DNA from: Phage NC-B
Sequence record: MK310183
Direction: 5' to 3' (one strand)
Length of the DNA: 64,000 bases
Shown: positions 26,460-51,560 of the stretch, in pieces
How the letters are laid out: every line of letters starts with the position of its first letter
Position numbering within the stretch: the first letter of the stretch is position 1
Position numbers and translations under genes: made by a program
The notes under the pieces: generated by a model
The model's input: the letters and a program-made list of their open reading frames with translations, nothing else
What the model was told of the DNA's origin: nothing
Database searches by the model: none

Positions 26460-26529
26460 TCTAAGACCTAAGTCCTATCTCTTATAATGTATATAGGAGG
26501 TAGGACATTTTTATTTATAAGGAGACGTT

Positions 26530-29500
26530 ATGGCTAATTTAAAATCGTGGGAAGAAGCTTCCAAAGCTCCTGCGTATCTGAACGCCTCTCCAGAGCAACA
26601 GGCTCAAATGAGAGAACAATACAAGGCAGCAGGGGGCACTATTCCTGAGACTCAACCACAAGAGCAACCACAACAAGAAGAACGAGGTGCTATTGGGGAG
26701 TTTGCTCAAGGTGTGTCTAACGCTCTTCAATCAGGTGGTGCTAACATTGCAGCTAGTGCTGCTAAAGGTTTAGGTGGGCTGGTAGAGATTGGTGAAAACT
26801 TAACTGGTTCAGAAACAAGCTATGGTAAGCGCATTCAAGAGAACTCTAAGCAATTGCTGGAAGAACGCTTATCCAAGATAGAAGACGGTTTTGGTAAAAC
26901 AGCTGGTCAGTATGCTGGTGTTGCTGCTGATATTGGTTTGACAGTTGCAAACCCTGCTGTTGCTGCTGCTGTTATCGCAGCTCGTGAAACAGGTCGTGCT
27001 TATGCTGATCAAACTCCTAAAGAAGATGAAGATAAGTCAGTCTTAGATGCTGCTCTTGTTGGTGGTGCTAACTACGCTGCTCAGAAGATACTTCCGGGCA
27101 TGACTGGTACAGCTTCTACTACTCTTGGTCGTGTAGGACAAAGCGTAGCCTCTAACGCAGTTGCTGGTGCTAAGGGTGGTGCTATTGTTGGTGCTGCTGA
27201 AGCTCAGAACAAATATGGGGATGACACTACTCTAGCTAACGTATTAGAAGGGGCTATTGAAGAGGGTGCACTCGGTGCTGCTTATGGTGGGGCGATTGGT
27301 GGGGTTCATGGGTTAATAAGCCGTCCTAGCCCTCAAGTGTTTGATCGTACTCCTGAGCATGTTAAGACTGACATTGCTGCTGAAGATGAGGCTATTCGTA
27401 AAGCTGCTAACGCTGATGAACTTCGTGAAGCCTATGCTAAAGCTGAGAACGCTAATGCTGCCTCTGCTTTAAACCTTCTGGATGAAAATGGTTTCCGAAT
27501 CACAGATGCAGTTGCTATGGACTCTCCTGCTGTTCAGCGTATTTTAAATACAGACCAAAGCCGCGCTGAGAAGGCTGCTACGGTTCAGAAAGATAGCTCT
27601 AATGTTCCCGGTCTTAATCCTCTCGCTTCTCCTAAGAAGACTCAAGGTAAAGCTTTTGCTGACAATGAGTACAACCAGAAACAAGCTGTGGCAATGAAAG
27701 ATGCAATGGCTGACTACACTAAAGATAACACCAAAGCCCTTACTGATGTTCTAGACAATCTAGACCGAGAGTTAGTAGCTCTGAGAGCAAGTGGTGATTT
27801 TACTGGTAGTACTATTGACATTAAAAACCGTACTCAAGCTGATCGTGATTTTATTGATGCTTATAAAACTTTCTACAGCGAAGCTAATCGTTTCAAAGCT
27901 CGTGATGGTGAAGATCTAAACAACTTCATTGATAAAGCTACTCAGTTGCAGAAGCTATCTGAGAATGTTTCTCCAGAGATGAAGAAGGCCATTGGTGGAT
28001 TAAAGAAACTGAAAGGTATGCCTGAAGGTTTTAACCCTATTCAAGATGCTTTCACTCTGAATAATACAGCTAAGTTCATGAGTAACCAAGACCGTGGTTG
28101 GACCTCTCTGACTGATGATGGTTTTCGTGAAGCTCCGGCTCCTGTGCTAGTTAAGAACCCTCTCGGTGCAGCCAAGTATGTGCTTAATCGCTTTACTTCT
28201 GACCGTGCTCGTGCTCAACGTGAGAAGCAACAGTCAGCTAATAGTGAAGCTATCCGCTCTTTGGCTAGGGCTGATTTAGAAGTACAACGAGCTAGGACTC
28301 AGGCTGAAGAAGCAAGAGCAAAAATGGAAGAAGAACCAACCACAGAAGACATCAAATTCCGTACTCAAAATGATGCACCTTCCGAACCGGTTCGTGAGGA
28401 GCCTTCTGCTACTACTGTGACGGAAGAAATTCCTTCCTCTCCAGCTCCAACTGAAACACCTCTTACTGCGAGGGATTTAGTTGCTCAAAGACGTGCTATC
28501 CAACAAGCAGAGCTTAGACGTCAAGAAGCTGAAGCTGCTCAGGCTCAAGAAAGTGCTACACCAGAACCTGAACCACAGCAAGAAGCTCTTACAGCTAGAG
28601 AATTAGTAGCTCAGCGTAGGGCTGTAGCAGAGGCTAAGAAACGTCAAGAGGCAGAGGAAGCAGAACGTGCTAAAGAAGCTCCTGAGGAAGCCGTAGAAGA
28701 GCCTAAAGAGAAACCTGAGCCATTACCTGCTCGTGCTCCTAAAGCTCCTGAGAAGGCTCCTGAGCCTGTTAAACCGTCCCTTGGTGTAGAACGTCTAGCT
28801 TCTATGTCAACTGCTGCTCGTCAAGCAACAAAAGACCGTGCTGATCGATTTGCTCGTTCTTTGTATTCGGCTGCTGCTAAAGCTAAAGCCACTGCGGAAA
28901 ACTTCCTTTCTTACAAGGGAGATCCTAAAGAGCTTATGCGTCGTATCCGTCAGGAAGACCAAGCAAACAACACACAGCGTCATGAAGAGATGGCTAGAAA
29001 CCAACTAGCTTCCCAGCAAGGCATTGCTTCTGCTAAATCTCAACATGTTCGTGCTTCTTTTGCTGATTGGGTGAAAGAACGTGGGTTGCCTTCTGATATT
29101 GCTACTAAGGCTTTACGGGCTGAAGAGAAAGGTTTAGGTGGGAACGTCACAAGTCTAGATTCACTGAAGCGAAGAGCTGAGCGTTTATATCAGAAACAAA
29201 GAGATGATGAGTTTGACCGTCTCTATCGAGAGGCTCTGGAAGAGAATAAAGCTTTTGATAAGAGAGATGCTCCTAAACTGGTAGACCAGAAGAAAGAGCT
29301 TCAGGATGAAATTGGTGCGTTGCTTGATGCTGAACCGTTACGTCCTGCTCAGAAAGATGCTATGCGTAGGATTATGGAAGACTTCGTGGAGAGTAAGTTT
29401 AAATCTTCAGAGAAAGCTGGAAGGGTTGAGGCTTTGGAAGTTGGTCAGATGAAGGATGTGTGGGATGGGTTTATTAATACCTATAACCGAGAAGTTAACA

Positions 29501-32210: not shown

Positions 32211-33032
32211 TTATTCCCAAGTTTTATCTAACCATGACCAATCAAAGAGGTCACCTTCAGCTTGTCCAACGAAGAGCAATCGAGCGTTTTCTAACATCTT
32301 ATCTTCTGCTTCTTCCTCGAACCTCTTATAGTATTCCATTCGTATAATATGATAAAGAGTCCACTTATCGAATACCTTCTCAATAAGTTTGATTGCAGCC
32401 TTGCTACCAATGCCTTTACGACGCATTACTAGATTGCCACCCCATATCATTTCAACCTTCTCACCACATCCGGGAATGTTATCTGTGCTATCCCCGATCA
32501 GCATCTGGTAGAAGAAGTTCTGCCATGCTACTTCCTCTGGTACATAGTGAGGAGGTACTTCTTTCTGTCTCTCCCCGCAAGCCCAACGGTAATGCCATCC
32601 GGGGGTGATTAACAAATCTTTATCACGGGTGCAAATGATAGTGTTCTTATCACGTCTCTGTCTTTCAGCTAAGGCATCATCTGCCTCTCTCCCAAAAACT
32701 TCAACGAATTCATAATTCTCTTTAATGTAATCGCTGACATTTTGCCAGTGGTGAGGTCTTTCTCCCGGTGGTCGATTAGCTTTATAACCTTGCTGCTTAG
32801 CAATATCAAACCGAAAATTACCACCTTCGCTGAAGTAAAAGATTGTTTTCTCGCAACCAGACCTTGCAATGATTACATCTATTTTATGTTGAAGTCGTTC
32901 AATCAAGAATCCATAATCAACTGGAACACGACCTGTGTCTAGAAAAGGATGCTCTTGTGTAAGAGCACCGACTTCATATCGCAGAACATCTGCATCTACA
33001 ATTGCTACTTCCGGATAGATTACATCAGACAT
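32211..33032 (-). CDS. 5'-3' exonuclease / flap endonuclease
   Basis: motifs IVDADVLRYE, GREADDALA, TRDKDLL, GDSTDNIPG; start moved to internal ATG 33032 (overlaps upstream stop by 8 nt). Confidence 0.85.
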   Translation of the reverse strand: MSDVIYPEVAIVDADVLRYEVGALTQEHPFLDTGRVPVDYGFLIERLQHKIDVIIARSGCEKTIFYFSEGGNFRFDIAKQQGYKANRPPGERPHHWQNVSDYIKENYEFVEVFGREADDALAERQRRDKNTIICTRDKDLLITPGWHYRWACGERQKEVPPHYVPEEVAWQNFFYQMLIGDSTDNIPGCGEKVEMIWGGNLVMRRKGIGSKAAIKLIEKVFDKWTLYHIIRMEYYKRFEEEAEDKMLENARLLFVGQAEGDLFDWSWLDKTWE

Positions 33033-33621
33033 AGAGACCTCTCCGTGTCCCTTCAATAATCCACTCCAAATCCTCCACTGCCTCTTCTACAGAACGGTCG
33101 TTAAAGAGGAGATAGGTTGGTAGATTTGTTCCTTCAATATAAGAACGAGAGTCCCCTTCAAAGGAGCAGCCATCTCGGAGAATCTGAACTACTCGAACAT
33201 GGAAGTGTTTCTCTAGTTCTTCAACTTCTGCTTTAAATCCACCATCAGAGAAGACGATAACATCATTCTGTGATGGGATACGTTGTTGAATATTGCTAAC
33301 AGCAAGTTTACCCATGCAGGTCTCACCAAACATGGGCTTCAGATAGTTCTCACTAGTTGCAATCATCAAGTCTCGAACTGACTTACCGTCCCATTCAGGA
33401 CGGCTATGTTCTTTCCACTCACGATCGTTGTACAGCTCCATGAACTCATAAAGAGGTAGACCTAATGCAGCAGCAGCCACTCGATACATAGGCTCCTTAA
33501 AAGCCTTTACATGCGGCCTAAACTCGGTGTTACCAAGTGTTTTCTCTAACCAAGAATTAGCGATTGTGTCTTTACCACAACCCGGTGGTCCATTCAGAAT
33601 TACTACTAATGGTTTACTCAT
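33025..33621 (-). CDS. P-loop kinase, putative (d)NMP kinase
   Basis: Walker A LNGPPGCGKDT. Confidence 0.55.
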   Translation of the reverse strand: MSKPLVVILNGPPGCGKDTIANSWLEKTLGNTEFRPHVKAFKEPMYRVAAAALGLPLYEFMELYNDREWKEHSRPEWDGKSVRDLMIATSENYLKPMFGETCMGKLAVSNIQQRIPSQNDVIVFSDGGFKAEVEELEKHFHVRVVQILRDGCSFEGDSRSYIEGTNLPTYLLFNDRSVEEAVEDLEWIIEGTRRGLYV

Positions 33622-35808: not shown

Positions 35809-36141
35809 ATTAATATTTCCTTATATAGATTTAAGATTGTTGCTCTCTTTGAGCGGTTTGTATACTATATACATTACACTTATACAGATAAGGTTCTATT
35901 ATACTATAACCTTTTTGGTAGTAGATAATGACAAGTAGTAATGTATATATGGTATAGCTAGTAAAGCTATTGCAGGCTTGTATATTGGGCAATCATTGTA
36001 ACCCTTGCAAGTACCGAAGGGCAGGAGACACCTGCGAGATAAAAATAGAGAATTAAGGAAATCCTTGATTTAGGTTGAGGACTCCTAGGACTTTGATTCT
36101 CTATTAAAATCAAAAGAAAACTTAACTTAAAACAATAACTT
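35809..36141. promoter_or_regulatory. long AT-rich intergenic region, candidate promoter cluster or origin
   Basis: 333 bp non-coding; repeated TATAC/TATACT motifs; inverted repeat AGAGAAT...ATTCTCT around a CCTAGG palindrome. Confidence 0.35.
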
Positions 36142-38518: not shown

Positions 38519-38685
38519 TACTCCCTTTCATAAATTTTAAGAACTGTACCGCCATCTGCTTCAATCTGAGCAACTACTTCATCGCGCTCTTCATCAGAAT
38601 AAACCAGTTGGTTGTGAAATTTGCCTGTACTATCTTGGAAATATACATTCCATTTTGGAGCAGGTTTACGAATCAAATCCATCAT
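38518..38685 (-). CDS. hypothetical small protein (55 aa), not in ORF track
   Basis: ATGATG start with GAGGAGA SD 7 nt upstream; stop TAA overlaps next gene start. Confidence 0.35.
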   Translation of the reverse strand: MMDLIRKPAPKWNVYFQDSTGKFHNQLVYSDEERDEVVAQIEADGGTVLKIYERE

Positions 38686-39082: not shown

Positions 39083-40930
39083 TTAGTGAGTGTGATTCCA
39101 GTTTAACCCAATCTTACAGTCAGATGCCAGAGGGCATTCCATTTTGAGATACTCACCTGCTTTACGAACACACTCTTCAGTGAGGGTACGAAGTTTGTTA
39201 ACATCGTCACGATGTACAGTGAACTGGCCTTCATCATGCATGTCAATAACCTTCGCACAACGAACACCATCACGCTCAATCCATTTATTAAGGAATAGCA
39301 TTGCATACTTCATAACAATCGCCCCAGCGCTCTGTAAGAGAGTATTTAAGGCTTTATGAACCATAACCTTTCCAGTTGCATCTCTTCTCATTGTAATACG
39401 ACGTCCATCCACACCGTAGATGTATCCACTTTGTGCTTTCTCTGTCATACGTTCAATAAGAATTGCAATACAAGGATTCTCTGCTAAGAATCTTGCCCTC
39501 ATGACAGCTCCTTCATCAGAGCCACCGCCTACGATGCTTCCTAACTTAGCGTCACCAGCTCCGTAGTTGAATGCGTAGATAAATGTTTTAGCATTATCAC
39601 GAGTAGGAAGGCCAGCAAGTTTTTGGTTATGTGAGTGAATATCTCCTTCTAAAAGAATATCTCTGTACATAACAGCAGAAGCTAGACCGCGTTCAGCTTC
39701 TCGTTTCTTAGCCGGGTTGTTTTCTCGCTCTGCTTCAGCGAGCATCTCACGACATTCTTTAATAAGGTAGTGAGCTAGCATCCTCAGCTCAAGACCAGAG
39801 CCATCGTAACCTAAGAAGATTTCACGACCAGCAGGAACATAGAACTTATAGGCACCTACAGGTTTGTCTTTCTTGCCCGGTTTTCCCACTTCGTAGATAA
39901 TGTTAGTACCCTTTCGTACGTAACACCCATCAGGGATATGGTTGGTAATGATGAAAGGATGGTTATGACTATCGTCTGAGGAATAGTCAGATTGAAAAAG
40001 ACTGCGGCACTCGTGACCAAACAAACCGCGAGAAGGAATATTAACAACAATGCGATGTTTAAAACGAAATGTCGGAGTAGCGCAGCTATTAGCTTCGGCG
40101 GACAACTTACCATCTTTACGTTCCTTGTCGATAAGCCCGCTAATCAAACCTAGCCTGTGAGCCGCTACAACGCGTCTCTTAAGCAAACTTCCTACACCCC
40201 CTAGCTCACCCCCAAGCCCTTCTTCAAGAGTCTCCTCAAGGTTTGTAGGGGCTGTAGGCCACTTGTTTGATGTAGCCAAAGCTTTTTTGATTTCATCAAA
40301 GGTTACAGGCTTCTTCCTATTAGGGTTAAGACCTAAACCGCTGACATAAGCTTTCATATAATTGACAGTGTGATAACGGAAGTGCTTATCCAAAAACCTT
40401 CGGATATCAGCATCTATCATCTCTGCTGTCTGTTTCTCTTTAGCGTTACCTCGAATCCAAGCAGAATACCATGCAGAGTATGTACCATACTTCTTCATAG
40501 CTTTACGAATTTCAAAAGTATTCCAAGGTTTCTTAGAATAATTCCACTCTGGAGGTATAAAACCTTCATCCATCAAGGCTTCTTTAATACGTGCATCTTT
40601 TGATGGGTCAAAATCTACATACTCAACGCAAGTAAACGCCCCACCGATATCTTCTCTTTTAAGACCAACCCTATCGCAATAGAGCTGAGGCCACTTCTGT
40701 AAAGCACCTGACTTCTTAAAAGGCTTAGCATAAGTTGAACCATCCACCCGCATTTTAGGGAGGAGAGGAATCAGTTCTTTATCAATATTGACAATAATCT
40801 CTTTGAGAAGGTGAACAAACCACCGAGCGTTTCTTCTGTTGAAGTTGACTCCATGCTTCGCTTGTTTTGAGATTATATCAGCGACTGTCATCTCCGTTAT
40901 GAAAGGTAACTTATCAGGGTTATCCATCAC
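39083..40930 (-). CDS. DNA polymerase, family A (polymerase domain only)
   Basis: motif A DGSGLELRMLAHY, motif B RDNAKTFIYAFNYGAG, motif C VIDMHDE; no exonuclease motifs in this ORF. Confidence 0.85.
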   Translation of the reverse strand: MMDNPDKLPFITEMTVADIISKQAKHGVNFNRRNARWFVHLLKEIIVNIDKELIPLLPKMRVDGSTYAKPFKKSGALQKWPQLYCDRVGLKREDIGGAFTCVEYVDFDPSKDARIKEALMDEGFIPPEWNYSKKPWNTFEIRKAMKKYGTYSAWYSAWIRGNAKEKQTAEMIDADIRRFLDKHFRYHTVNYMKAYVSGLGLNPNRKKPVTFDEIKKALATSNKWPTAPTNLEETLEEGLGGELGGVGSLLKRRVVAAHRLGLISGLIDKERKDGKLSAEANSCATPTFRFKHRIVVNIPSRGLFGHECRSLFQSDYSSDDSHNHPFIITNHIPDGCYVRKGTNIIYEVGKPGKKDKPVGAYKFYVPAGREIFLGYDGSGLELRMLAHYLIKECREMLAEAERENNPAKKREAERGLASAVMYRDILLEGDIHSHNQKLAGLPTRDNAKTFIYAFNYGAGDAKLGSIVGGGSDEGAVMRARFLAENPCIAILIERMTEKAQSGYIYGVDGRRITMRRDATGKVMVHKALNTLLQSAGAIVMKYAMLFLNKWIERDGVRCAKVIDMHDEGQFTVHRDDVNKLRTLTEECVRKAGEYLKMECPLASDCKIGLNWNHTH

Positions 40931-40943
40931 CCACTCCTTATAG

Positions 40944-41297
40944 TTATTGGTATATTAAATCTGTGAATGCTTGGTTGTCTTCAACAATATCTAAAGCTTC
41001 ATATGAATCAGCCAATTCATCCACATAAAAGACTGCTGGAATATCTTCTGCTCGTTGTCTACGAGCTTCTCTCTGTTCGTTGCTGTTTCTCTGAACCTGT
41101 GCAAGTTTCATACCCCACACCTGCTCATATAACTCTGGATACTTGTCACTAACCACTACATAGTTTCGAGCTGATTGGTTTCTATTAATCTTCGCTGTCA
41201 ACTCAATAAACTGGCGAAACTCTTGAATAGAGAGGTTGTCATGAATATTATCCCACTTGAGAACGCAGTGACGTTCTAGGCGTTGAGGTACTGGCAT
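40944..41297 (-). CDS. hypothetical protein
   Basis: 117 aa ORF. Confidence 0.5.
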   Translation of the reverse strand: MPVPQRLERHCVLKWDNIHDNLSIQEFRQFIELTAKINRNQSARNYVVVSDKYPELYEQVWGMKLAQVQRNSNEQREARRQRAEDIPAVFYVDELADSYEALDIVEDNQAFTDLIYQ

Positions 41298-41300
41298 AAC

Positions 41301-41558
41301 TTACTCCACTGTAGGGAATGGTTTTAGGTTGTTCATGGCTGTACGAACATCAGCACAGATTTCAGGGTCACGATAAGAGAGGAATTTACCATCCTTACCA
41401 CGAATCATTACATTAGTCCGTGCTGTTTTATTAGGCAATAAAGAAATCCCTTCAATAAGATGGTTGGTAGGGTGTTGTCCTTGATTAACCTTGTAGTCAT
41501 GAGTCTGAGCGTCACCATTAAAGAGATGATCACGAATTTGGATTAAGCTAATCTTCAT
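41301..41558 (-). CDS. hypothetical protein, TARTNV-motif family (paralog 1)
   Basis: …NKTARTNVMIRGKDGKFLSYRD…NLKPFP; start set to ATG 41558. Confidence 0.5.
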   Translation of the reverse strand: MKISLIQIRDHLFNGDAQTHDYKVNQGQHPTNHLIEGISLLPNKTARTNVMIRGKDGKFLSYRDPEICADVRTAMNNLKPFPTVE

Positions 41559-41559
41559 A

Positions 41560-41811
41560 TTATGCACCAAAGTTAGGGAAAGGTTTCAGATTTTCAATAG
41601 ACTTAGCAATACGCTTAGGAACATCCTTATCACGGAAGGAGATGAACTTTCCATCAGGACCACGAAGGGCTACATTAGTACGAGCTGTTGTTTTGTTAAA
41701 CTGAATCATCTCAACAGAGCTTGTAACATTTTCTACAGGAAAAGTATAGCTCTCAGTTGTGTTCAGAGAAGGGAGGAAATCAGTTACAGTGATGTAAGTT
41801 ACTTTAGACAT
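41560..41811 (-). CDS. hypothetical protein, TARTNV-motif family (paralog 2)
   Basis: …NKTTARTNVALRGPDGKFISFRD…NLKPFP; start set to ATG 41811 because GTG 41847 lies inside the terminator. Confidence 0.5.
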   Translation of the reverse strand: MSKVTYITVTDFLPSLNTTESYTFPVENVTSSVEMIQFNKTTARTNVALRGPDGKFISFRDKDVPKRIAKSIENLKPFPNFGA

Positions 41812-41829
41812 ATTTATTACCTTAGGTTC

Positions 41830-41862
41830 TATAAAAGAAAAGGCCACCCGAAATGGGTAGCC
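41830..41862 (-). terminator. rho-independent terminator
   Basis: minus-strand GGCUACCC-AUUUC-GGGUGGCC then UUUUCUUUUAU. Confidence 0.75.
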
Positions 41863-41867
41863 TTATA

Positions 41868-42185
41868 TCAACTTGAGCTTAAAGCTCCTTTGCGACCGCC
41901 TGCTGATTTTCCAGCACGATCTCCACTTTTGCCGCCGTTCGAGCGATTTCGAGAGACTGATTCAACACGTAAGTTACTTGACGCATTAGAACCTCCCGAC
42001 TTGATTGATCGTTTGTGTCCAACATCTTTACCTCGGACAGCAGCTTTTCCATCGCGCTTTTCAACGATGCGACGTGCACGGTGGCGCTGAGCATCTCCGC
42101 TCTTGCTACCAACGCCGGTCTCACCCCTTGCGATTGCAGTTCTTCGTTCTTGTGCATAATCACGTTTCGCCTTATCGGTCATCAT
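41868..42185 (-). CDS. basic Gly/Ser/Arg/Lys-rich low-complexity protein (KGG-repeat-like?)
   Basis: 105 aa ORF with strong TAAGGAG SD; locally GC-rich; a second long ORF (41879..42163) overlaps in another frame. Confidence 0.4.
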   Translation of the reverse strand: MMTDKAKRDYAQERRTAIARGETGVGSKSGDAQRHRARRIVEKRDGKAAVRGKDVGHKRSIKSGGSNASSNLRVESVSRNRSNGGKSGDRAGKSAGGRKGALSSS

Positions 42186-42187
42186 AA

Positions 42188-42217
42188 CTCCTTAATATAT
42201 CAGTGTACACTAAGGAG
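42188..42217 (-). promoter_or_regulatory. SD-sequestering hairpin upstream of 41868..42185
   Basis: inverted repeat CTCCTTA (42188-42194) / TAAGGAG (42211-42217); in the mRNA the anti-SD arm pairs with the SD. Confidence 0.4.
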
Positions 42218-42229
42218 TATACATTATGT

Positions 42230-42967
42230 TTATGATTTTTCAGATTCCATTGCTTTAACAATAGCTTTACAGAAACCTGAACGAACAATATCATCCGATT
42301 CGCCATCTACTAGAGCGGCAAATTCAAATAACTGGTGACGGTAGATGAAATCAGTAGCCCAATCAAGACCGCTCTCACCACGCATGTCGTGCTGGTTAGT
42401 GTCCCCCATACAGAACATCTGAGAGGTTTCACCAAGACGTGTCATGATTGAATATGCTTCATCAGGAGTAGTGTTCTGGAACTCATCAACAATCACGATA
42501 GCATCGTTGAACGAGCGACCACGTAGATATTCCAGAGGTACGAACTCAATATTACCATTACCTACTTGACATTCGTAGAAACCTTTACCGTAGCGCTGAG
42601 TAATAACATCAACGATTGGCATTAGGTATGGTTCAAACTTCTCACGAAGCCCACCGGGAAGTAATCCAAGACTATTACCCATACCAACAGCAGGTCGGCT
42701 TAGGATAATCTTCTCAATCTTCCCACTCTTCAGAGCATCAATCACTGTAGAAGTGATTACGAAGGTCTTACCACAACCAGCAGGAGCATCTGTGAATACA
42801 ACCTGTTTGGTTTTAATTGCATCAAGCAGCTCACTCTGGAATTGGTTCTGAGGTACTACCGGCTTAGCAAGAACTACTTCTTCAAATTCCCGCTTTCCTT
42901 TCTTGGTGACGAGAGCTTCACGACGTAATTCTCTCCGTGATGCTTTCCGAGATTCTCTACGACTCAT
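42230..42967 (-). CDS. phoH: PhoH-like ATPase
   Basis: DAPAGCGKTF Walker A, ILSRPAVGMGNSLGLLPGGLREKFEPY PhoH signature. Confidence 0.85.
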   Translation of the reverse strand: MSRRESRKASRRELRREALVTKKGKREFEEVVLAKPVVPQNQFQSELLDAIKTKQVVFTDAPAGCGKTFVITSTVIDALKSGKIEKIILSRPAVGMGNSLGLLPGGLREKFEPYLMPIVDVITQRYGKGFYECQVGNGNIEFVPLEYLRGRSFNDAIVIVDEFQNTTPDEAYSIMTRLGETSQMFCMGDTNQHDMRGESGLDWATDFIYRHQLFEFAALVDGESDDIVRSGFCKAIVKAMESEKS

Positions 42968-43145
42968 TTCCTACCTCCGTGTTCTTCATATAAGAAGCTA
43001 CAGGATTTACACTCTGAGCAATGGATACCTATAACCTTAATTTCGACAAACTTCTTATTCTTCCCTTTAGTCGGGGAGCCTTTGGCAAGCTCCCGTATTA
43101 CTTTCGAGTCCAAATGGAGAAGAGTTGATTCACATTTAAAACATT

Positions 43146-43466
43146 TCAGATTGATTTGTCCTTATGTAAACGGTATACTTCAGTAGCCATACAAGCTATA
43201 CGCTCGTCATGAGGAAGATGCATACCAGTGGAGCCATTCCATCCATTGAACTCTGAATCAAAGAATCCGATAGGCTCAGGATACATCTCTTGCAAAGTGG
43301 TTAAGTCATCGGCCACTTGTTGCCATTTGTCATCAGACCAGATTGGGTCATCCAACCAATAATACAAATAGGAGTGGATAAGCATCTGTGTTCTGTATCG
43401 TTTAATCACTTCAGCAGGACTAATCTCGTTTCCGTTACCAGTCCTAAATGTATTATCGTTGATCAT
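43146..43466 (-). CDS. hypothetical protein
   Basis: 106 aa ORF. Confidence 0.5.
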   Translation of the reverse strand: MINDNTFRTGNGNEISPAEVIKRYRTQMLIHSYLYYWLDDPIWSDDKWQQVADDLTTLQEMYPEPIGFFDSEFNGWNGSTGMHLPHDERIACMATEVYRLHKDKSI

Positions 43467-43775
43467 TTAGATAACCTTGTGCTCGTAGATGCTGGGGTTG
43501 AAATAATGCAACCAGTTTATATATTGTTTCTGTTCAAGGTAGTGTCTGCAATCATGACAAAAAGCATGACCCAAACCTGTTTCCTCGTTCAGCTTGAAGT
43601 TGATAAGAAGCTTCTGCTTTTGACAGAAGCTACATGCTTTAGTGGGCTTCACGTAGTGCATCCCATGAGATTGGGAAAAGTTTACGAAGCTCTTCATCAA
43701 CAGTTGATGCGAACACTCGTACTTCATACTGAGCATGGTCTGACAGCCGCTGACGACATAACTCTGACCAACCAT
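43467..43775 (-). CDS. hypothetical Zn-ribbon protein (start uncertain)
   Basis: Cys pairs CSFC...CHDC; 5' part overlaps the 3' end of thyX, true start probably internal (ATG at 43697 or 43661). Confidence 0.4.
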   Translation of the reverse strand: MVGQSYVVSGCQTMLSMKYECSHQLLMKSFVNFSQSHGMHYVKPTKACSFCQKQKLLINFKLNEETGLGHAFCHDCRHYLEQKQYINWLHYFNPSIYEHKVI

Positions 43776-44289
43776 ACAAAGAGCCTGTCCACACCCATTC
43801 AGTGATCATGCCCTGAGGCAATACAAATCGAGCTTGCTCTGGAGCAATAAACTTAATTAATTCATCATACGACTCAAGAGCTGTTTCATATGCCCGATTA
43901 ATCAGAACTAGTGCAGAGTTTTGTGCTCCTGTGGTGAGGAGATTCCCCGCACCTGCATGGAGGTCCGAAGGTCTTTCAAAAATCTCTTTAGGGATGAAGA
44001 GTTCAACTGCTCCATCTTTATACCGCCGGGACATTTCGTTCCACGAGAATCCAACTTGATGCTTGCCCAGCTGTCTCGCAATTGCGATTGGCGCTTTGCA
44101 TCGGAAGCTAATTGTCGGATGACGGAATGGTGTGACATGCTTTTCTCTGGCAAGGAACTTGATAAGGCGTTCATCTCGTTCATTTAACTCTCCTTCACGA
44201 GTAACCCCAAAAGAAACTCGAGCTGCATTAACAACAGATTTATCAGAACCCATTGCTTCGATTAGTGTTGCTTGTAATTGTTCATTCAT
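43639..44289 (-). CDS. thyX: flavin-dependent thymidylate synthase ThyX-like (divergent)
   Basis: AARVSFG..., HVTPFRHP, RLSDHAQYEV match ThyX; canonical RHR motif replaced by KHQ (LGKHQVGFSWNEMSRRY). Confidence 0.75.
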   Translation of the reverse strand: MNEQLQATLIEAMGSDKSVVNAARVSFGVTREGELNERDERLIKFLAREKHVTPFRHPTISFRCKAPIAIARQLGKHQVGFSWNEMSRRYKDGAVELFIPKEIFERPSDLHAGAGNLLTTGAQNSALVLINRAYETALESYDELIKFIAPEQARFVLPQGMITEWVWTGSLYGWSELCRQRLSDHAQYEVRVFASTVDEELRKLFPISWDALREAH

Positions 44290-44303
44290 CCTTGAACTCT
44301 TCC

Positions 44304-44519
44304 TTAATAATGAATCTTTTTATAAACCATATTGCTTCCGCCTTCTGTTTCAATCCCTTTCTGAATTGTAATCTTAGAAGCGCCAGTGTTAGCAATTTTC
44401 AAAGCTCGCTTAAATCTGCGAGCCTCTTTCCGTGTGGAGTATGTTGAGAAGCTAGGGATTGTACTATCAAAATTAAACCACTTAACTACCCAAAAAGTAA
44501 TCCAAGGTTTCTTTGCCAT
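44304..44519 (-). CDS. small basic protein, TRKEAR-motif family (paralog 3)
   Basis: 71 aa; shares W.V..W...F.TRKEAR..K and C-terminal Tyr with 46386..46598 and 46598..46813. Confidence 0.5.
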   Translation of the reverse strand: MAKKPWITFWVVKWFNFDSTIPSFSTYSTRKEARRFKRALKIANTGASKITIQKGIETEGGSNMVYKKIHY

Positions 44520-44520
44520 A

Positions 44521-44796
44521 TTACTTACCTTTCAGAGCCGTGTCTAAAAATGCACGGAGATTAGATTCAGTTTGCATACCTGACAAGCTGTAGTGAGCAC
44601 CACTATTCTTATCAGGGACTACAAAGGCTGGGATACTGCGAACACCGTATTCAATAGCTCGCTCTCGACCATCACCTTCAGAGATGTTTACCTCTTCAAC
44701 TTCAACGTTGTAATCAGCCACAACCTTCTTAAACACAGGAGCCATAGCTGCACACGGAGCACATGAATTACTATAAAACTTAATTACTTTACTCAT
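44521..44796 (-). CDS. thioredoxin-like protein
   Basis: VIKFYSNSCAPCAAMAP (CxxC), YGVRSIPAFVV, NLRAFLDTAL; start set to ATG 44796 (AAGGA SD). Confidence 0.7.
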   Translation of the reverse strand: MSKVIKFYSNSCAPCAAMAPVFKKVVADYNVEVEEVNISEGDGRERAIEYGVRSIPAFVVPDKNSGAHYSLSGMQTESNLRAFLDTALKGK

Positions 44797-44986
44797 TCTA
44801 TTCCTTGTTAATAAACAGGTTGATATGACGCTGGGTAGCAGGAACAACAATAAAAGATTTATACTGACCTTTTGCTAAGTCATGAGCAATCTTCTTTGTC
44901 TGACCAAGACCCATCACACAGCCACTAACGATAATGGCATGTGCTTGTAATTCTTCAGGTAGGTTTAGTTTCACTCTTTGGATTCC

Positions 44987-45172
44987 TTATAGCATACAAA
45001 GAATAATAACAAGAGGTAGTGTTATAGCAAAATGTACCAGAACAACACTACCTAGCTTGATAGCTTTAACATCCTCTTCTGCTGGGTTTTCTTTAATTGC
45101 TAAATTTCGAGCTTTATATATAACAGTACCAACTATTAACGACCACACGGCCCACACAATCAGTGAAATCAT
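44987..45172 (-). CDS. small two-TM membrane protein (paralog 1)
   Basis: MISLIVWAVWSLIVGTVIY...KENP...LGSVVLVHFAITLPLVIIL. Confidence 0.5.
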   Translation of the reverse strand: MISLIVWAVWSLIVGTVIYKARNLAIKENPAEEDVKAIKLGSVVLVHFAITLPLVIILCML

Positions 45173-45181
45173 GTCAAACCC

Positions 45182-45361
45182 TTATGCAGTCAACAGGTGG
45201 AGAAGGAAAGGAATGACAACAGAGAAAACTACCAGAGCAATGCTACCATGTTTAATAGGTTTGGCATCATTTGGATTTTCTTTAAGCATCTGTTTCTGAG
45301 CCAGATAAACGATACCACCAACAAGAATTGCCCATACAGACCACACGATTGCTGAAAACAT
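45182..45361 (-). CDS. small two-TM membrane protein (paralog 2)
   Basis: MFSAIVWSVWAILVGGIVY...KENP...HGSIALVVFSVVIPFLLHL; start set to ATG 45361. Confidence 0.5.
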   Translation of the reverse strand: MFSAIVWSVWAILVGGIVYLAQKQMLKENPNDAKPIKHGSIALVVFSVVIPFLLHLLTA

Positions 45362-45424
45362 ATTCATATCCTTATAAAGAAGTTCGCCCCACCTCTTAAA
45401 CAAAGAGACAGGGCGGAGGTTTGA

Positions 45425-46000
45425 TTAGTAAGACACGTCACCACTGGAGTGGGACATGTTGCTCTTGACGAAGTAACAGAACTTGCCAAGACCTTCATTA
45501 ATTTCTTGAAGCATACTCTGATCAACTGGATAGGTGCACAAGTCTGAATCAAACTCGTCCATCTTCTCAATGATACACATAAGAGTCATGCACATGTCGG
45601 AAAGCATACCGTCCATGTCGAGATCAGCGTTACCTTCTCGGAACCAAGCATGACCTAAATAGTTACTAGCAGTAGCATCCACTTTAACACAGTGAAAGCG
45701 CATACGCTCTGCTATTCGGTCGCCTGCCTCACGAGCATAATCTTCTAGTTCATCGAACATACCATGAACACCTTGGAAACCAGCTCCAGAGACGTTCCAG
45801 TGGTAGTTCTTTGCTTTGATGTGTAGAAGTTCAAGGTTAGCTTGCACACCACACAAGATGTGTTCTAAGCTGTTACCACTAATCAGTTTATTCATTCCCT
45901 CAAGACGAGAAATAGAAGAGTCAGTAGTAGAGAATGGGTTGCTAGGACCCACTCTTGTTAGCTCTGGTAAATCGAAGACATTATTATGCATTAGGTGCAT
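45425..46000 (-). CDS. dps: Dps-like ferritin-fold protein
   Basis: LELLHIKAKNYHWNVSGAGFQGVHGMFDELEDYAREAGDRIAERMR closely matches the Dps ferroxidase-centre region (H, H, D, E positions conserved). Confidence 0.8.
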   Translation of the reverse strand: MHLMHNNVFDLPELTRVGPSNPFSTTDSSISRLEGMNKLISGNSLEHILCGVQANLELLHIKAKNYHWNVSGAGFQGVHGMFDELEDYAREAGDRIAERMRFHCVKVDATASNYLGHAWFREGNADLDMDGMLSDMCMTLMCIIEKMDEFDSDLCTYPVDQSMLQEINEGLGKFCYFVKSNMSHSSGDVSY

Positions 46001-46313
46001 CCCCTTCTAAGTTAGTTGAATTAGCTACATTACGAGCAATGTTATCCATGACCTGCTGTGTGATAACAATGCAATTCTGAGGGTCTACTGATTTAGAACG
46101 CCCCATTTCAGGGTCATAGACTTTGACTCGCTTGGCTGTTGAGCCAGTAACTTGCAACACTTTGAGAAGATAACCTTGATTTCCAATAGACCATGCAACA
46201 ACATCACGATTCTTGATATAACGACCAAGCATATCCCGATGATAGAACTGCTGCATAACTTTAGCTTTGCTAATCTCTTCAGATGGCGGAGCCACTTTAC
46301 TCAAATCTAACAT
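45984..46313 (-). CDS. hypothetical protein
   Basis: 109 aa ORF. Confidence 0.5.
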   Translation of the reverse strand: MLDLSKVAPPSEEISKAKVMQQFYHRDMLGRYIKNRDVVAWSIGNQGYLLKVLQVTGSTAKRVKVYDPEMGRSKSVDPQNCIVITQQVMDNIARNVANSTNLEGDAPNA

Positions 46314-46385
46314 TTCACTCTCTCCTGTTTAACACAATATTCTTATACTGTATATACATTTGAGAGTGATCATATCTACTACCAA

Positions 46386-46598
46386 TCAGTAGTAAACATA
46401 TCCAGAGATATATGAGCCTTTATCCCCACTAAACTCAAACCATCGATGCATGTCAGCACGTTTAACCGTACCGACTAGAGCTTTCATATTCTTCTTAGCA
46501 ATACGAGCCTCTTTACGAGTGTTAAACAGTTTGATACTATCTTTACCTAGATGGACACCATCTTCCCAAACAACACGAACAGCCCACATCTTTTTCAT
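46386..46598 (-). CDS. small basic protein, TRKEAR-motif family (paralog 2)
   Basis: MKKMWAVRVVWEDG...FNTRKEARIAKK...SGYVYY. Confidence 0.5.
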   Translation of the reverse strand: MKKMWAVRVVWEDGVHLGKDSIKLFNTRKEARIAKKNMKALVGTVKRADMHRWFEFSGDKGSYISGYVYY

Positions 46599-46813
46599 TA
46601 GTAATGTACCTTTCCGCTGATATAAATACGGCCTGAGGTATACTCATAGCCCTTGAGAATCTTAACAGAGATAAGATATCCAGTGTGTAATTCACTGAAT
46701 GATTTCTTAAGCCTACGTGCATCTTCTCGTGTTTTCTGGTAGGTCATGGTCACACCCCCACTTGTCCACTCTGTCTTAACTAACCAAATTCTTTTCATAA
46801 GACCTGCTCTCAT
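46598..46813 (-). CDS. small basic protein, TRKEAR-motif family (paralog 1)
   Basis: ...WLVKTEW...YQKTREDARRLKK...SGKVHY; stop/start overlap with paralog 2. Confidence 0.5.
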   Translation of the reverse strand: MRAGLMKRIWLVKTEWTSGGVTMTYQKTREDARRLKKSFSELHTGYLISVKILKGYEYTSGRIYISGKVHY

Positions 46814-47347
46814 TTAGACACCCTTAGAAGCAACTACACCTTCGCTACCATTATAGCGACCCTTAACTGCATAGGAATGTTCACCAGCATGTGAATGCTC
46901 AAACATCACCATCTGACCAACACGCATACCAGCACGAACTCGTAAGCTGTGGTGCTTGGTTACGTTATGAAATTCGAATGTCAGCTTGCTGTTGTTAAAC
47001 CCAGCGTCTGCCCAACCAGCATGTAAATGGTTCAGGCCACAACGAGCCATCGAAGATCGCAAAACAAACAAACTGGAGATGTTATCTGGAAGGTTGAACT
47101 CTTCCATTGAGTGAGCCAAGAAGAATTGTCCCGGAGTGATGATAATACCATCTTCAGGGATTTTTACTTCTTTCCACTTGAGGTTTTCTTTAGCATCAAT
47201 GTCAACAATACCATCAGCCTGTTCTTCAACAAGGATAGTATCACCAATGCGGATATCCACGCTAGCAGCGTTAACATATTTATGCTCCGCATCTAAAAAG
47301 CCATTATCAATAACGCTGTGTAATTCTTGAGAACCTAAAAGACTCAT
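46814..47347 (-). CDS. dcd: dCTP deaminase (Dcd/dUTPase superfamily)
   Basis: AASVDIRIGD, RSSMARCGLNHLHAGWADAGF, LRVRAGMRVGQMVMFE match Dcd. Confidence 0.8.
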   Translation of the reverse strand: MSLLGSQELHSVIDNGFLDAEHKYVNAASVDIRIGDTILVEEQADGIVDIDAKENLKWKEVKIPEDGIIITPGQFFLAHSMEEFNLPDNISSLFVLRSSMARCGLNHLHAGWADAGFNNSKLTFEFHNVTKHHSLRVRAGMRVGQMVMFEHSHAGEHSYAVKGRYNGSEGVVASKGV

Positions 47348-48789
47348 GAGTTTCTGTTTCCTTGTACGGATGATGCCAAATTATTAATCATGTTGCGAGC
47401 TGTTTCACGAGATAGTGTAACACCTGCTAAGTTGTTACGAAGCTCACCAGATAGTTCACGAGCAGTAGCTCGAAGTTCTGCACCAAGTGCAGTGTCAGAG
47501 TGAGCCAGACCGTTACGACGACCAACAGGTCGAGGAGCTTCGTTAGCGTCATTAGCTAATGATGCAAAACCAATATGAGCAGCTTCACGAGCCGCTATAG
47601 CTGATACTCGATCTTCTGTAGGGGTTGGTAAATCACCAACGTCTACACGTTCGATATCACTAGCACGAATTCCACCAACAACAGATCTTACTGTTTCCCA
47701 TGAACGACGAGAACGCTGCAAATCATCCATTGATGGAGAAGAAACAGGACGAGCAGTTCCCCCTGAGACATGCCATGTATGGTTGTGGGTGTCCGTCCCG
47801 GAAGAGCGTGAACTAACACGTAAGTCACCGGTAAAAGTTTCACGAGGTGCCACTGTAGAAGGAGCTGCGAATCTTGCCTGTTGCCAAGAATCACGTCTGT
47901 TGGTTCCCGGAGTCCAAGGCTGCGTGATTGCTTCAGCACCTATAGTGGTTAATCCGCTAGACCATTCTGTCTGTAGATTAACTTCCTCGTCCAGATAACT
48001 ACGACCCCTTTCCTGAGGAATGTTTAATATAGTTTCCATCATCTTCAGGGTATAATGACGACGCTGATTCTGATATAAATTTACACCAGCCATAGGTCCA
48101 ACTAAATCACTAATCAGGTGAACTTCTGGCTCACCGAAAGCTCCCATTGCAAGGTGCATATATTCAGTAGAACTGCTATAAACTGCAACAGTTGCTTCAG
48201 GCCACTTCTTGTGAACATACTTCATTTCACGACTAGATACCACAGGAATGTCACGAGTGTATGACATTGCAAACAAACCTTCGTTTGACACATACAGATT
48301 ACCAAGAGTCATAAACCCTTGACAGATCATAGGGAAGCGACGGCTTAAAGTGTCCATATCCAAAGGTAGATTAATCATCATCTGGATTTTAACTTGATCA
48401 ATCTCAATTTCCAGAATCTCTTGGAAAGTGAAAAGCGCTTCAGCATAAGTTGTCCCGTTAACAGGTTGAACTAGTCGAGATGTTACTTGAAGTCCCTTAC
48501 TCTCTGTCCAAGACAAGAAGTTGTCGAGGAACAGTGCAGCATTGCCTACGTTAGCAGGGCTATTTTCCTGACGAGTGTTCCAACGAAGACCGCCTTGAAC
48601 TAGGAAGATATCAACATCATTCGGAGTTCTATTTTGGAAGAACGTATCACGGATAGCACCACCTGCAATAACAGGATAGATGCCATCAGGGACTACGTTA
48701 TCTCTGATCAAATTACGAATCAGGTCAAGCCCTACACTGAGGGCTTCTCCTTCTTGAAGGTTCAATTCAGACAATGGAATCTTAATCAT
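47344..48789 (-). CDS. nucleotidyltransferase (CCA-adding / poly(A) polymerase head-domain type) with disordered Arg/Ser-rich C-terminal half
   Basis: VIAGGAIRDTFFQNRTPNDVDIFLV matches the GGxxRD...DxD head-domain signature; C-terminal about 230 aa are R/S/T/A/G-rich low complexity. Confidence 0.6.
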   Translation of the reverse strand: MIKIPLSELNLQEGEALSVGLDLIRNLIRDNVVPDGIYPVIAGGAIRDTFFQNRTPNDVDIFLVQGGLRWNTRQENSPANVGNAALFLDNFLSWTESKGLQVTSRLVQPVNGTTYAEALFTFQEILEIEIDQVKIQMMINLPLDMDTLSRRFPMICQGFMTLGNLYVSNEGLFAMSYTRDIPVVSSREMKYVHKKWPEATVAVYSSSTEYMHLAMGAFGEPEVHLISDLVGPMAGVNLYQNQRRHYTLKMMETILNIPQERGRSYLDEEVNLQTEWSSGLTTIGAEAITQPWTPGTNRRDSWQQARFAAPSTVAPRETFTGDLRVSSRSSGTDTHNHTWHVSGGTARPVSSPSMDDLQRSRRSWETVRSVVGGIRASDIERVDVGDLPTPTEDRVSAIAAREAAHIGFASLANDANEAPRPVGRRNGLAHSDTALGAELRATARELSGELRNNLAGVTLSRETARNMINNLASSVQGNRNS

Positions 48790-48791
48790 TT

Positions 48792-49340
48792 CTACATTTT
48801 CCAGTTGAGAGATGGGGGATTTCTATAATCAAATCCTGCCATTTGGCAAAGACACATGTAAACCTTAACTGTTAAGTTAACGTCTTGCTCACAATACGTG
48901 AACATGTCTTCAGTGAAAGCATCCCATGCTTCTTCCTGTTCACCATAGTCACCCTTCAGCTCTCCCAGAAATTCGCCCCATTGCTTGAGGCCATGACCGC
49001 GAGGGCCATGTCTAGGGTCGCCTTTGGGGTATTCTGGACTGTCACCAATACGGTCAGGCTTGAGGTATCGACTCAGGCACAGGGTATCAAAGACATTAAA
49101 ACGAAAAGGTATCACATGAGAGTAGAATTTAAAGAGAGCACATAAATCATAATCAATGATGTTATGTCCAATCACAACATCAGCCTCTTTGAGTTTATAA
49201 AGAGCATCCTCAATCTCATGTGGTCTAAACCCCCAACGCTCTCCTGAGAGAACATCAAAAATCCAAACACACCAGATATCAGAGACTTCTTCATACAACC
49301 CGTTGGCTTCTATGTCAAAAGCGTAAAGTTTCTTATCCAT
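48792..49340 (-). CDS. 3'-5' exonuclease (DnaQ/DEDD, Pol I proofreading type), separate gene
   Basis: Exo I FDIEANGL, Exo [10 protein letters not shown], Exo [11 protein letters not shown]; start set to ATG 49340. Confidence 0.8.
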
Positions 49341-49776
49341 AAGATTTTTCCAGATACCGCAAGGCGGAGCGTATAATCTCAAGGTCATCTTTTAAATAAC
49401 CTATCCCTGAATTGCACGATCTGCATAGGATTCCTCTAACAACACCTGTTTCGTGACAATGGTCCACACAAGCAATTTTACTTATGTTTTTCATTTCATC
49501 CGAGATGCTTAACTCTTTGCCGCAAATAGCACAAGAGTTATCCTGAGAACCCAATAGAGCTTTGACGTCATCAAGACTTAAACCATATTGCTTCAGTGAG
49601 TTTTTCCTAGAAGCTTTTCGGTGAATCTCTTTAACACCCTCTATATTGTGATATCTGAACATAGTCCTGTCATTCATGCAGACTTTACAAGAAGACCTAT
49701 ACCTGCCAGACTCAGACCTCTTATAGAAAGCGTCTAGGGGTTTTTCAACCCCACACTTACTACAGGTTTTTACCAA
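49333..49776 (-). CDS. endonuclease VII-like Holliday-junction resolvase
   Basis: [24 protein letters not shown] matches the T4 endo VII core; N-terminal zinc-ribbon cysteines. Confidence 0.8.
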
Positions 49777-51560
49777 GGCCGTGCCTCCCCATCTTGTGTT
49801 AGAAGGGAAGCTGCATCTTCTCCGTTGGTGACTGTAAACGGATTATCTTCATCAACTTCATGATCTTCTCGTTCCACAAGACGACCTGTTTCGTTGATGT
49901 ATTTGGTATAGCAAACCCCTGTCTGTCCATAGTTACGCTCTTTGAGCAGACGTATGATTGACAAGTTTTTACCTAACCCATCCGCTTGCTTATTACGTTC
50001 GAAACCGATAATACATTGACACCAGCGCATTAATGAACGTGAGCCAGTAAACTGTACTTCTTTAACCTGACCACCTTCTTCGTGAGGGGCACCGCCCGCC
50101 GGAGCATTCAAGTGAGATAACACAAAAGCAGTGAAGTCTAATTCCTTACACATACCAGCAAGCTCTGAAGCAATCTTACTGATTTCTGTATTCACTTCGG
50201 ATGGAGTTAAGTGAGATACCAATGCAGTGATGTTATCAAGGATGATAAACTTACACTGATTCTCAACTACCCAAAAGCGAATACACTGCTTAATGTCTTC
50301 CCACTCATTCTGTCCAAAGTTGTCGTATAAGAAAAACTTATCAGCGTATCGAAGTGCTTCATCTCGTAGCTGACTTTCTTCATACTCAACATCTGGTCGG
50401 TGAAATGGAACAGATGCAGACTTACCAGCAATGTTCTTAACAGACATGCCTACCTTCTCTTCCAAGAAGAAGCCACCACCATTAAAACCATGCTCAAGGC
50501 AAAGCCATGCTACCAGTTCGTGTGCGATTAAGGTTTTACCTGAACCAACACCACCTCCGATTGCAACCATCTCTCCCCAACGAATACCAAAGGTCATGTC
50601 ATTGAGAGTTTTCCACGGATAAGGGATACCCCATTCCGCTTTCTTCAGAGCGTCTTCAAGGCAGTCAAAAACTGTAACAGCTCCAGCAGGAGATTCCCGC
50701 TTAGCTGAATACTTCAGATTATTGAAAAGCTCTTGACCTCTCCCTGCCAGTAACATGTCGTTTGCATCTTTGATTTCCTTTTCCTGTCCGTTGTAAGTAA
50801 ACGTACCTTTTGGAATTCTTGCAAACTTGACATGTGGGTACAGAGAACGACCTTTAGTCAATGCAATCTCACCTGCATCATCATTGTCCATGCAGAGTAC
50901 AATCTCCTCGAAACCGTTAATAAAATCACGATTTCTTGATAACACAGAAGAGATTGAACCTGCACCGAACGGAAGAGAGACACAAGCAGGTTTGATATTA
51001 GTTGCGTTTGTGAACGCAGTAAGTACGTGGAATCCAGACATACAAGAGAGTGGGTCTTCAAAGATGAAGAGCTTCTTATTGTAAACATCGCCACGTTGTG
51101 CTTGAGCCATACCAAATAAGTCGGCTTCTTTCACATTACCTACATAATAGAACTTCTTGCTGTCTAGAAGTTTTACTTCATATCCAACAATATTCCCATC
51201 ACGTTCACGAGGGAAGAAGTAGCTGTCAGGAGTTTGACCGTCTGTTTGACTTAAACCAATACGGCATCCATAACGTTCAGATACAGCTTTAGGAATTAAG
51301 CGACGAGTCAATTCTCCCTGAGGAAGCTCTAAGCAATCGTCTAAGACTTCTCGGAGTTCTTCAGGGGACAGCTCTTTCTTTTCATTAGGAGTGGGCGTCG
51401 TTCCTTTCTCGAAGATTTCATACGCACCACATCTGTTACATGAACCCCACTCCTCACCGGACTCTTCATTTCGGAAGAGAATCATGTGATTGCGGGTCTT
51501 ATCACGACCATGAGAGATACACTCTTTACAGCCCGTGTCTCCCAAAATGATCTTTGACAT
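49770..51560 (-). CDS. DNA primase/helicase (T7 gp4-like)
   Basis: N-terminal zinc ribbon CKECISHG...CNRCGAY; helicase Walker A GGGVGSGKT, Walker B FIILDNIT. Confidence 0.85.
   Translation of the reverse strand: MSKIILGDTGCKECISHGRDKTRNHMILFRNEESGEEWGSCNRCGAYEIFEKGTTPTPNEKKELSPEELREVLDDCLELPQGELTRRLIPKAVSERYGCRIGLSQTDGQTPDSYFFPRERDGNIVGYEVKLLDSKKFYYVGNVKEADLFGMAQAQRGDVYNKKLFIFEDPLSCMSGFHVLTAFTNATNIKPACVSLPFGAGSISSVLSRNRDFINGFEEIVLCMDNDDAGEIALTKGRSLYPHVKFARIPKGTFTYNGQEKEIKDANDMLLAGRGQELFNNLKYSAKRESPAGAVTVFDCLEDALKKAEWGIPYPWKTLNDMTFGIRWGEMVAIGGGVGSGKTLIAHELVAWLCLEHGFNGGGFFLEEKVGMSVKNIAGKSASVPFHRPDVEYEESQLRDEALRYADKFFLYDNFGQNEWEDIKQCIRFWVVENQCKFIILDNITALVSHLTPSEVNTEISKIASELAGMCKELDFTAFVLSHLNAPAGGAPHEEGGQVKEVQFTGSRSLMRWCQCIIGFERNKQADGLGKNLSIIRLLKERNYGQTGVCYTKYINETGRLVEREDHEVDEDNPFTVTNGEDAASLLTQDGEARPW

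Follow-up and report, generated by a model that had tools for sequence, protein, structure and literature searches.

A T7 gp5-type DNA polymerase encoded by separate exonuclease and polymerase genes in Phage NC-B

Do two genes that lie nearly 8 kb apart specify the proofreading exonuclease and the polymerase of a single replicative enzyme? The question is raised by a 64,000-nucleotide stretch of Phage NC-B (sequence record MK310183), the whole of which we call the window. An earlier note on this stretch had proposed a family A DNA polymerase divided between two genes about 8 kb apart. Both open reading frames (ORFs) are present on the minus strand where that note had placed them, with a small correction to the polymerase start:

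48792..49340, minus strand: stand-alone exonuclease of the DEDDy 3'-5' proofreading type, 182 aa, counterpart of T7 gp5 residues 2-203.
39083..40927, minus strand: family A DNA polymerase without an exonuclease, 614 aa (thumb, palm, fingers), counterpart of T7 gp5 residues 213-704.

The split is real and had been correctly interpreted; such a division is usual in this phage group, and papers and database records already describe it. The probability is roughly 80% that the replicative polymerase of this phage is of the T7 gp5 type (family A), with its gene divided where the exonuclease and polymerase domains meet. The start of the polymerase is more likely the ATG at 40927 than position 40930, since it lies 6 nt after AAGGAG and yields the 614-aa protein annotated in relatives. 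The exonuclease ORF as called mechanically reaches to the first ATG at 49388; a start at 49340 agrees with the 549-nt gene annotated in relatives, and the ATG at 49340 shares letters with the stop codon of the upstream ORF (ATGGATAA).

The two products correspond to complementary halves of a family A polymerase of the T7 gp5 type; the halves are collinear and do not overlap. Alignment to gp5, the check that the earlier note had suggested, places the exonuclease on residues 2-203 and the polymerase on residues 213-704, the break falling at the linker between the domains. PHROG profile phrog_17 is divided in the same manner, the exonuclease matching positions 669-826 and the polymerase positions 837-1233. 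Specifically, the exonuclease matches gp5 residues 4-142 with phmmer (E 2e-9; only T7 gp5 chains were matched among Protein Data Bank (PDB) sequences), and its family profile, built from 26 homologues, matches gp5 2-203 with hhalign at a probability of 99.5%. The polymerase matches gp5 with phmmer (E 4e-33), its profile matches gp5 213-704 with hhalign (E 8e-54), and Pfam DNA_pol_A is found on residues 363-612 with 85.8 bits against a cut-off of 34.3. T7 gp5 is the best match of both halves in sequence and in fold, with identical catalytic residues, the difference being that T7 makes one polypeptide where the window has two genes 7.9 kb apart.

All catalytic residues are present in both halves. 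In the exonuclease, Exo I is D9-I-E11 (T7 D5/E7), Exo II is H59-N60-x-x-D63-Y-D65, of which D65 pairs with T7 D65, and Exo III is Y149-x-x-x-D153 (T7 Y170/D174). Residues D9, E11, N60, D65 and D153 are invariant in the 26 homologues, and Y149 is found in at least 90% of them. In the polymerase, motif A D375 pairs with T7 D475, motif B R443/K447/Y451 with T7 R518/K522/Y526, and motif C H564-D565-E566 with T7 653-655; D375, R443/K447/Y451 and D565/E566 are invariant across 36 homologues.

Structure prediction gives the same picture. The AlphaFold2 (AF2) model of the polymerase has a mean predicted local distance difference test (pLDDT) score of 89.4; the model opens with the long helices of the thumb, and an RNase H-like fold is absent from its N-terminus. 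The top 27 Foldseek matches of this model in the PDB are T7 gp5 (E 6e-26, template modelling (TM) score 0.55-0.59), and Pol I enzymes of the Bst, Taq and Klenow type come next. The exonuclease model (pLDDT 93.8) has an RNase H-like fold nearest to polymerase exonuclease domains, its top 27 PDB matches being T7 gp5 chains (TMq 0.61-0.71), followed by DpoZ. Weaker matches are NrnC, TREX1 and diDNase, which are stand-alone DEDD nucleases with other roles. The C-terminal FDxxNPP tail of the exonuclease pairs with the gp5 interdomain linker, and P175 is conserved in at least 90% of the sequences; the tail lends weak support to a retained docking between the two proteins.

These weaker matches bear on whether the small DEDDy protein could be an independent nuclease with a part, for example, in DNA repair or recombination, in the degradation of host DNA or in the processing of primers, leaving the polymerase without intrinsic proofreading. 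The 7.9 kb between the genes, with promoter motifs and terminator-like hairpins in it, would suit such a nuclease. However, the nearest relatives of the protein in sequence and structure are exonuclease domains of T7-type polymerases and not stand-alone nucleases, the linker-like C-terminal tail is conserved, and in every lineage examined the exonuclease-less polymerase is accompanied by the exonuclease in the same genome. We regard an independent nuclease as unlikely.

Intact exonuclease motifs at the N-terminus of the polymerase, which the earlier note held to speak against a split, were looked for with a hidden Markov model (HMM) of the exonuclease family, and none were found. With filters off, the only match among the 614 six-frame ORFs of the window was 48795-49391 (E 9e-85), and neither the polymerase frame nor the 117-aa ORF upstream of it (40944-41297) was matched even at E 10. 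An exonuclease remnant in or beside the polymerase is ruled out by this unfiltered search and by the helical N-terminus of the AF2 model. The window holds only one exonuclease homologue and one polymerase homologue.

The phage is Suseptimavirus-like (Gordonclarkvirinae, phiEco32-like), and its polymerase is 99.5% identical to the DNA polymerase of Escherichia phages IME267, vB_EcoP-101114UKE3, Bas87 and others. The same arrangement is found in these and more distant phages:

Bas87: exonuclease-polymerase gap of 9.2 kb, 24 genes between.
IME267: gap of 8.5 kb, 20 genes between.
Proteus phage 3H10_20: gap of 4.5 kb, 12 genes between, among them a Dcd-type deaminase, thioredoxin and Dps.
Pseudomonas phage Ka1: gap of 2.3 kb, 9 genes between, with homing-endonuclease genes in the gap.
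UFV-P2: gap of 2.1 kb, 10 genes between.

The recurrence of the split in many independently sequenced genomes of several genera, together with the intactness of both ORFs and the retention of all catalytic residues, refutes an artefactual split, in favour of which nothing was found; errors of assembly, a frameshift mistake or decaying fragments of a formerly fused gene are next to impossible.

The split state is shown by this comparison to be ancient and common to Gordonclarkvirinae, Privateer-like and LUZ24-like phages. The best 120 polymerase homologues in the database are all 369-618 aa long (the shortest are fragments or intron-split pieces) and so too short to include an exonuclease domain, and all 42 exonuclease homologues from a word search are under 300 aa and unfused to a polymerase. 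Most of the exonuclease is encoded in 1,790 phage records, and at least 80% of the polymerase protein in 242. A profile search of 1.8 billion representatives gave 4,924 relatives of the exonuclease, the best 150 of which were sorted into classes: 60 are at most 300 aa long and 74 at least 500 aa. In the 74 fused proteins the match lies in the N-terminal 150-170 residues, and 73 of them have the HDE motif C. The ten nearest relatives among the best 150 are stand-alone, the nearest fused one being 42% identical. Stand-alone and fused proteins are intermixed in this set (in only 74 of 135 cases does the closest neighbour belong to the same class), although the domain is short and some stand-alone matches are possibly fragments.

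In the E. coli Pol III core, the DnaE (alpha) polymerase and the DnaQ (epsilon) DEDD proofreader are separate polypeptides from unlinked genes and work in a similar manner; the difference is that DnaE is an unrelated family C polymerase, whereas the exonuclease of the window is a detached family A domain whose complex with the polymerase we infer. T7-like cyanophages, such as S-TIP37, have an exonuclease region and a nucleotidyl transferase region that are annotated separately, and the exonuclease is homologous to that of the window (32.6% identity); there, however, the two parts are contiguous, with no genes between, and a note in the record suggests that a frameshift may join them.

The closer counterparts are other phages with the same split. 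In LUZ24-like Pseudomonas phages (Bruynoghevirus) the exonuclease gene is annotated as 'DNA polymerase part I' and the polymerase gene as 'part II'. Their polymerase is ~41% identical to that of the window, ~545 aa long and likewise without an exonuclease, but it lacks the insertion at 389-416 and part of the one at 142-162. Their exonuclease is ~34% identical, stand-alone and encoded directly after the primase/helicase, and their gap is 2.1-2.3 kb with 9-10 small genes and without thioredoxin, Dps, ThyX or Dcd. All LUZ24-group phages have been described as encoding polymerase and proofreading exonuclease in separate genes (PMC3517423, 2012), and according to that paper the split in phiEco32 had been reported earlier (Savalia 2008, as cited in PMC3517423). 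The phiEco32-like phages (Kuravirus, Suseptimavirus) have a polymerase and separate 3'-5' and 5'-3' exonuclease subunits (for example YF01 gp49/gp70/gp27) in the order seen here; the difference is an Endonuclease VII-type gene that the window carries between primase/helicase and exonuclease. For YF01, polymerase, 5'-3' and 3'-5' exonuclease subunits were described as encoded apart, the 5'-3' exonuclease being named and the separation being common to all members of the group (PMC9965538, Viruses 2023). The small gene is also called 'DNA polymerase exonuclease subunit' by GenBank records and PHROGs. With the split reported for phiEco32, LUZ24-like and all Kuravirus-like phages and built into PHROG annotation, it carries little weight as a discovery.

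The genes around the two halves bear on the enzyme in which they would work:

49770..51560, minus strand: T7 gp4-like primase/helicase (Pfam DnaB_C and Toprim), upstream of the exonuclease.
44521..44796, minus strand: phage thioredoxin, 91 aa, CAPC active site (Pfam Thioredoxin, 1.8e-12), in the exonuclease-polymerase interval.
32211..33056, minus strand: 5'-3' (flap) exonuclease, the third Pol I-type activity, start codon uncertain (phrog_107 'exonuclease', E 1e-61).

The product of 32211..33056 has a weak Pfam 5_3_exonuc_N match, under the cut-off, and is labelled exonuclease in Bas87 and IME267. The gene downstream of the primase/helicase makes the 182-aa DEDDy 3'-5' exonuclease, and the second gene, 7.9 kb downstream on the same strand, makes the 614-aa polymerase core. 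In the proposed mechanism, the two proteins would then assemble non-covalently into a proofreading replicase in the manner of the gp5 domains; alternatively, the exonuclease may edit in trans. Their partners would be the gp4-like primase/helicase, the separate 5'-3' exonuclease and possibly the phage thioredoxin.

Several points weigh against this assignment. First, the Pfam model DNA_pol_A_exo1 scores 21.9 bits on the exonuclease (E 1.7e-4), just below its cut-off of 23.6, so that the assignment to the DEDDy family is carried by the hhalign match to gp5 2-203, by the match to phrog_403 (E 1e-35; labelled 'DNA polymerase exonuclease subunit') and by the fold match. Second, the binding of exonuclease to polymerase is an analogy with the gp5 domains, and we found in the literature no biochemical report of a proofreading replicase composed of the two proteins. 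Third, thioredoxin is a candidate processivity partner of the polymerase: a T7-like role for the phage thioredoxin has been put forward as a hypothesis for Privateer (PMC7881722). Fourth, early transcription in the related phage SU10 may read through into middle genes (PMC4281155), and the assignment of the exonuclease to early and of the polymerase to middle expression, set out below, is drawn from homology and a promoter motif.

The candidate thioredoxin partnership can be compared with the complex of T7 gp5 and E. coli thioredoxin. The phage thioredoxin is similar to the E. coli Trx1 chains of T7 gp5 complexes (phmmer, E 1e-6). Polymerase residues ~56-100 align with T7 258-325, the thioredoxin-binding loop region, and are modelled by AF2 as a structured beta/alpha element (pLDDT 86-91). 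Differences from the T7 complex are that the phage has its own thioredoxin, that the loop-aligned segment is ~25 residues shorter and that the polymerase core has extra, clade-specific insertions relative to gp5 (at about 144-200, 320-370 and 389-416), the last of which is confined to the Kuravirus/Privateer-like part of the clade. The phage offers a natural system for asking whether a phage thioredoxin substitutes for host thioredoxin as processivity factor, and how a family A polymerase functions when its proofreading domain is a polypeptide of its own.

How could the two halves have come apart? T7 and the window agree in the order primase/helicase, polymerase, 5'-3' exonuclease, and T7 genes 4, 5 and 6 are collinear with the full order primase/helicase, exonuclease, polymerase, 5'-3' exonuclease. 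This collinearity suggests that other genes were inserted into, and accumulated in, an ancestral gene 5, and that the split may have arisen by such insertion. In every lineage examined the exonuclease adjoins the primase/helicase and the polymerase lies farther downstream; the adjacency was seen in Bas87, IME267, Proteus phage 3H10_20 and Pseudomonas phage Ka1.

This constancy could also mean that the exonuclease is tied to the primase/helicase and not to the polymerase, and is brought to the fork in trans, much like epsilon within the holoenzyme. The exonuclease gene directly follows the primase/helicase in all lineages checked (in the window the endonuclease gene intervenes), while its distance from the polymerase is variable (2.3 to 9.2 kb). 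The two reading frames overlap in most lineages, 3H10_20 and the window excepted, and in most relatives free of the homing-endonuclease gene, and by homology the exonuclease and primase/helicase genes share an early unit. However, the ancestral T7 order, gene 4 then gene 5, already gives the adjacency, which therefore needs no functional explanation, and no sequence feature points to binding of the helicase. We consider a helicase-tied exonuclease quite improbable, more so than an independent nuclease, and retain the divided gp5-type polymerase as the preferred reading.

The interval between the two genes contains signals that may separate their expression:

46351..46361, minus strand: AAATGTATATA, phiEco32-type middle-promoter motif, preceded by the sigma-70-like hexamers TTTACT-16-TATGAT and upstream of ORF 45984-46313.
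42218..42226, minus strand: TAATGTATA, second phiEco32-type promoter motif, between PhoH and a 105-aa basic ORF.
41840..41864, minus strand: putative terminator-like hairpin from a consensus scan, 10 bp stem plus T tract, between exonuclease and polymerase.
45385-45415: second putative terminator-like hairpin from a consensus scan, between exonuclease and polymerase.

The motif TAATGTATA is matched exactly at 4 sites of the window, where 0.38 would be expected, whereas a generic sigma-70 promoter scan found 26 against 29.5 expected from shuffles, indicating no excess; among the promoter signals scanned, only this phage-specific motif is enriched. The motif tAATGTATAtA and a promoter upstream of SU10 CDS68 have been described, and the SU10/phiEco32 map places one middle promoter before CDS68 and another between CDS56 and CDS57, classing the polymerase (CDS51) as middle and the genes upstream of CDS68 as early (PMC4281155). 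The positions of AAATGTATATA and TAATGTATA agree with these two promoters. By analogy, the exonuclease would belong to the early primase/helicase unit and the polymerase would lie behind two middle promoters, with read-through expected.

An arrangement of this kind could make the separation functional rather than a frozen accident. Because the exonuclease would be early and the polymerase behind middle promoters of the phage sigma factor, the exonuclease:polymerase ratio could shift during infection, and changing it would, if this holds, alter replication fidelity or primer-end processing. A helical insertion at about polymerase residues 144-237 is clade-specific and absent from T7 gp5, and the polymerase region of the nearest fused homologue, P0179, is too short to hold it; the insertion might serve as a docking surface that replaces the covalent link. 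We think it unlikely that the separation is functional in this way.

More copies of the phiEco32 sigma-gp36 motif, (T)AATGTATA, match exactly at 26485-26493 (plus strand), 35868-35876 (minus), 35939-35947 (plus) and 38642-38649 (minus). Two of them form a divergent pair near 35.9 kb, and another precedes a 1,481-aa plus-strand ORF starting at 26530. The very basic 105-aa ORF (41868-42185, minus strand) is flanked by the TAATGTATA motif at 42218-42226 and the strong hairpin at 41840-41864, which suggests a small gene that may be expressed separately and strongly, just upstream of the polymerase cluster.

In this lineage homing-endonuclease genes occur in or beside both halves, making the locus a natural system for studying the origin of genes-in-pieces in phages. 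Beside the exonuclease, an ORF of Endonuclease VII/HNH type (49333-49776, minus strand; Pfam PF02945, 7e-21; phrog_2633) forms a ~436-nt insertion between primase/helicase and exonuclease. It is missing from Bas87, IME267 and other close relatives, only YW01 having a counterpart (72% identity). The adjoining first ~240 nt of the exonuclease gene (49101-49340) are 59-85% identical to Bas87, against 97-100% on the flanks. The N-terminal 75 residues of the exonuclease are consequently divergent, with catalytic residues kept, and because of this tract no known exonuclease exceeds 88-90% identity to it. The ORF resembles a free-standing homing endonuclease whose flank is either resistant to cleavage or co-converted.

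On the polymerase side, the gene of phage SU7 (L004 2196-2802) has a 607-nt insertion directly after codon D565, inside the HDE motif C, and an insertion at the same site is found in ECBP2, KBNP1711, PAS59 and PE006. The 607-nt insertion contains an HNH endonuclease ORF and then a weak group I intron match (26 bits, E 7e-4, under the Rfam gathering score). The polymerase gene of the window is uninterrupted at codon 565 (about 39233-39235); polymerase identity is 91.5% downstream of the insertion site and 96.7% upstream.

Lastly, the content of the interval largely bears out the earlier note. The gap between the two same-strand genes, put there at about 8 kb, measures 7,861-7,864 bp. More than 20 intervening genes had been claimed; we count 20 minus-strand ORFs tiling the interval, the number annotated in IME267, the closest RefSeq relative (gp049-gp068). 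The named members stand, with Pfam matches for ThyX (1e-42), Dcd (dCTP deaminase, 6.5e-35), a ferritin/Dps-like protein (7e-8) and the thioredoxin listed above; Pfam also identifies PhoH in the interval.

Several other minus-strand ORFs of the interval deserve mention. Directly downstream of the exonuclease, 47344-48789 encodes a 481-aa 'nucleotidyltransferase' (phrog_12715, 1.8e-166) that has no Pfam match; its long C-terminal half is S/R/G/T-rich and probably disordered. The stand-alone 106-aa product of 43146-43466 comprises domain Ia, the NAD+-binding part of NAD-dependent DNA ligase, and nothing else (Pfam Nlig-Ia, 3.9e-33); in relatives it is labelled 'DNA ligase', although no catalytic ligase domain accompanies it. 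Paralogous ORFs are found at 41301-41570 and 41560-41847 (37.5% identity), at 44987-45172 and 45182-45403 (membrane-like, 45% identity), and as a trio of ~70-aa ORFs at 44304-44519, 46386-46598 and 46598-46813.

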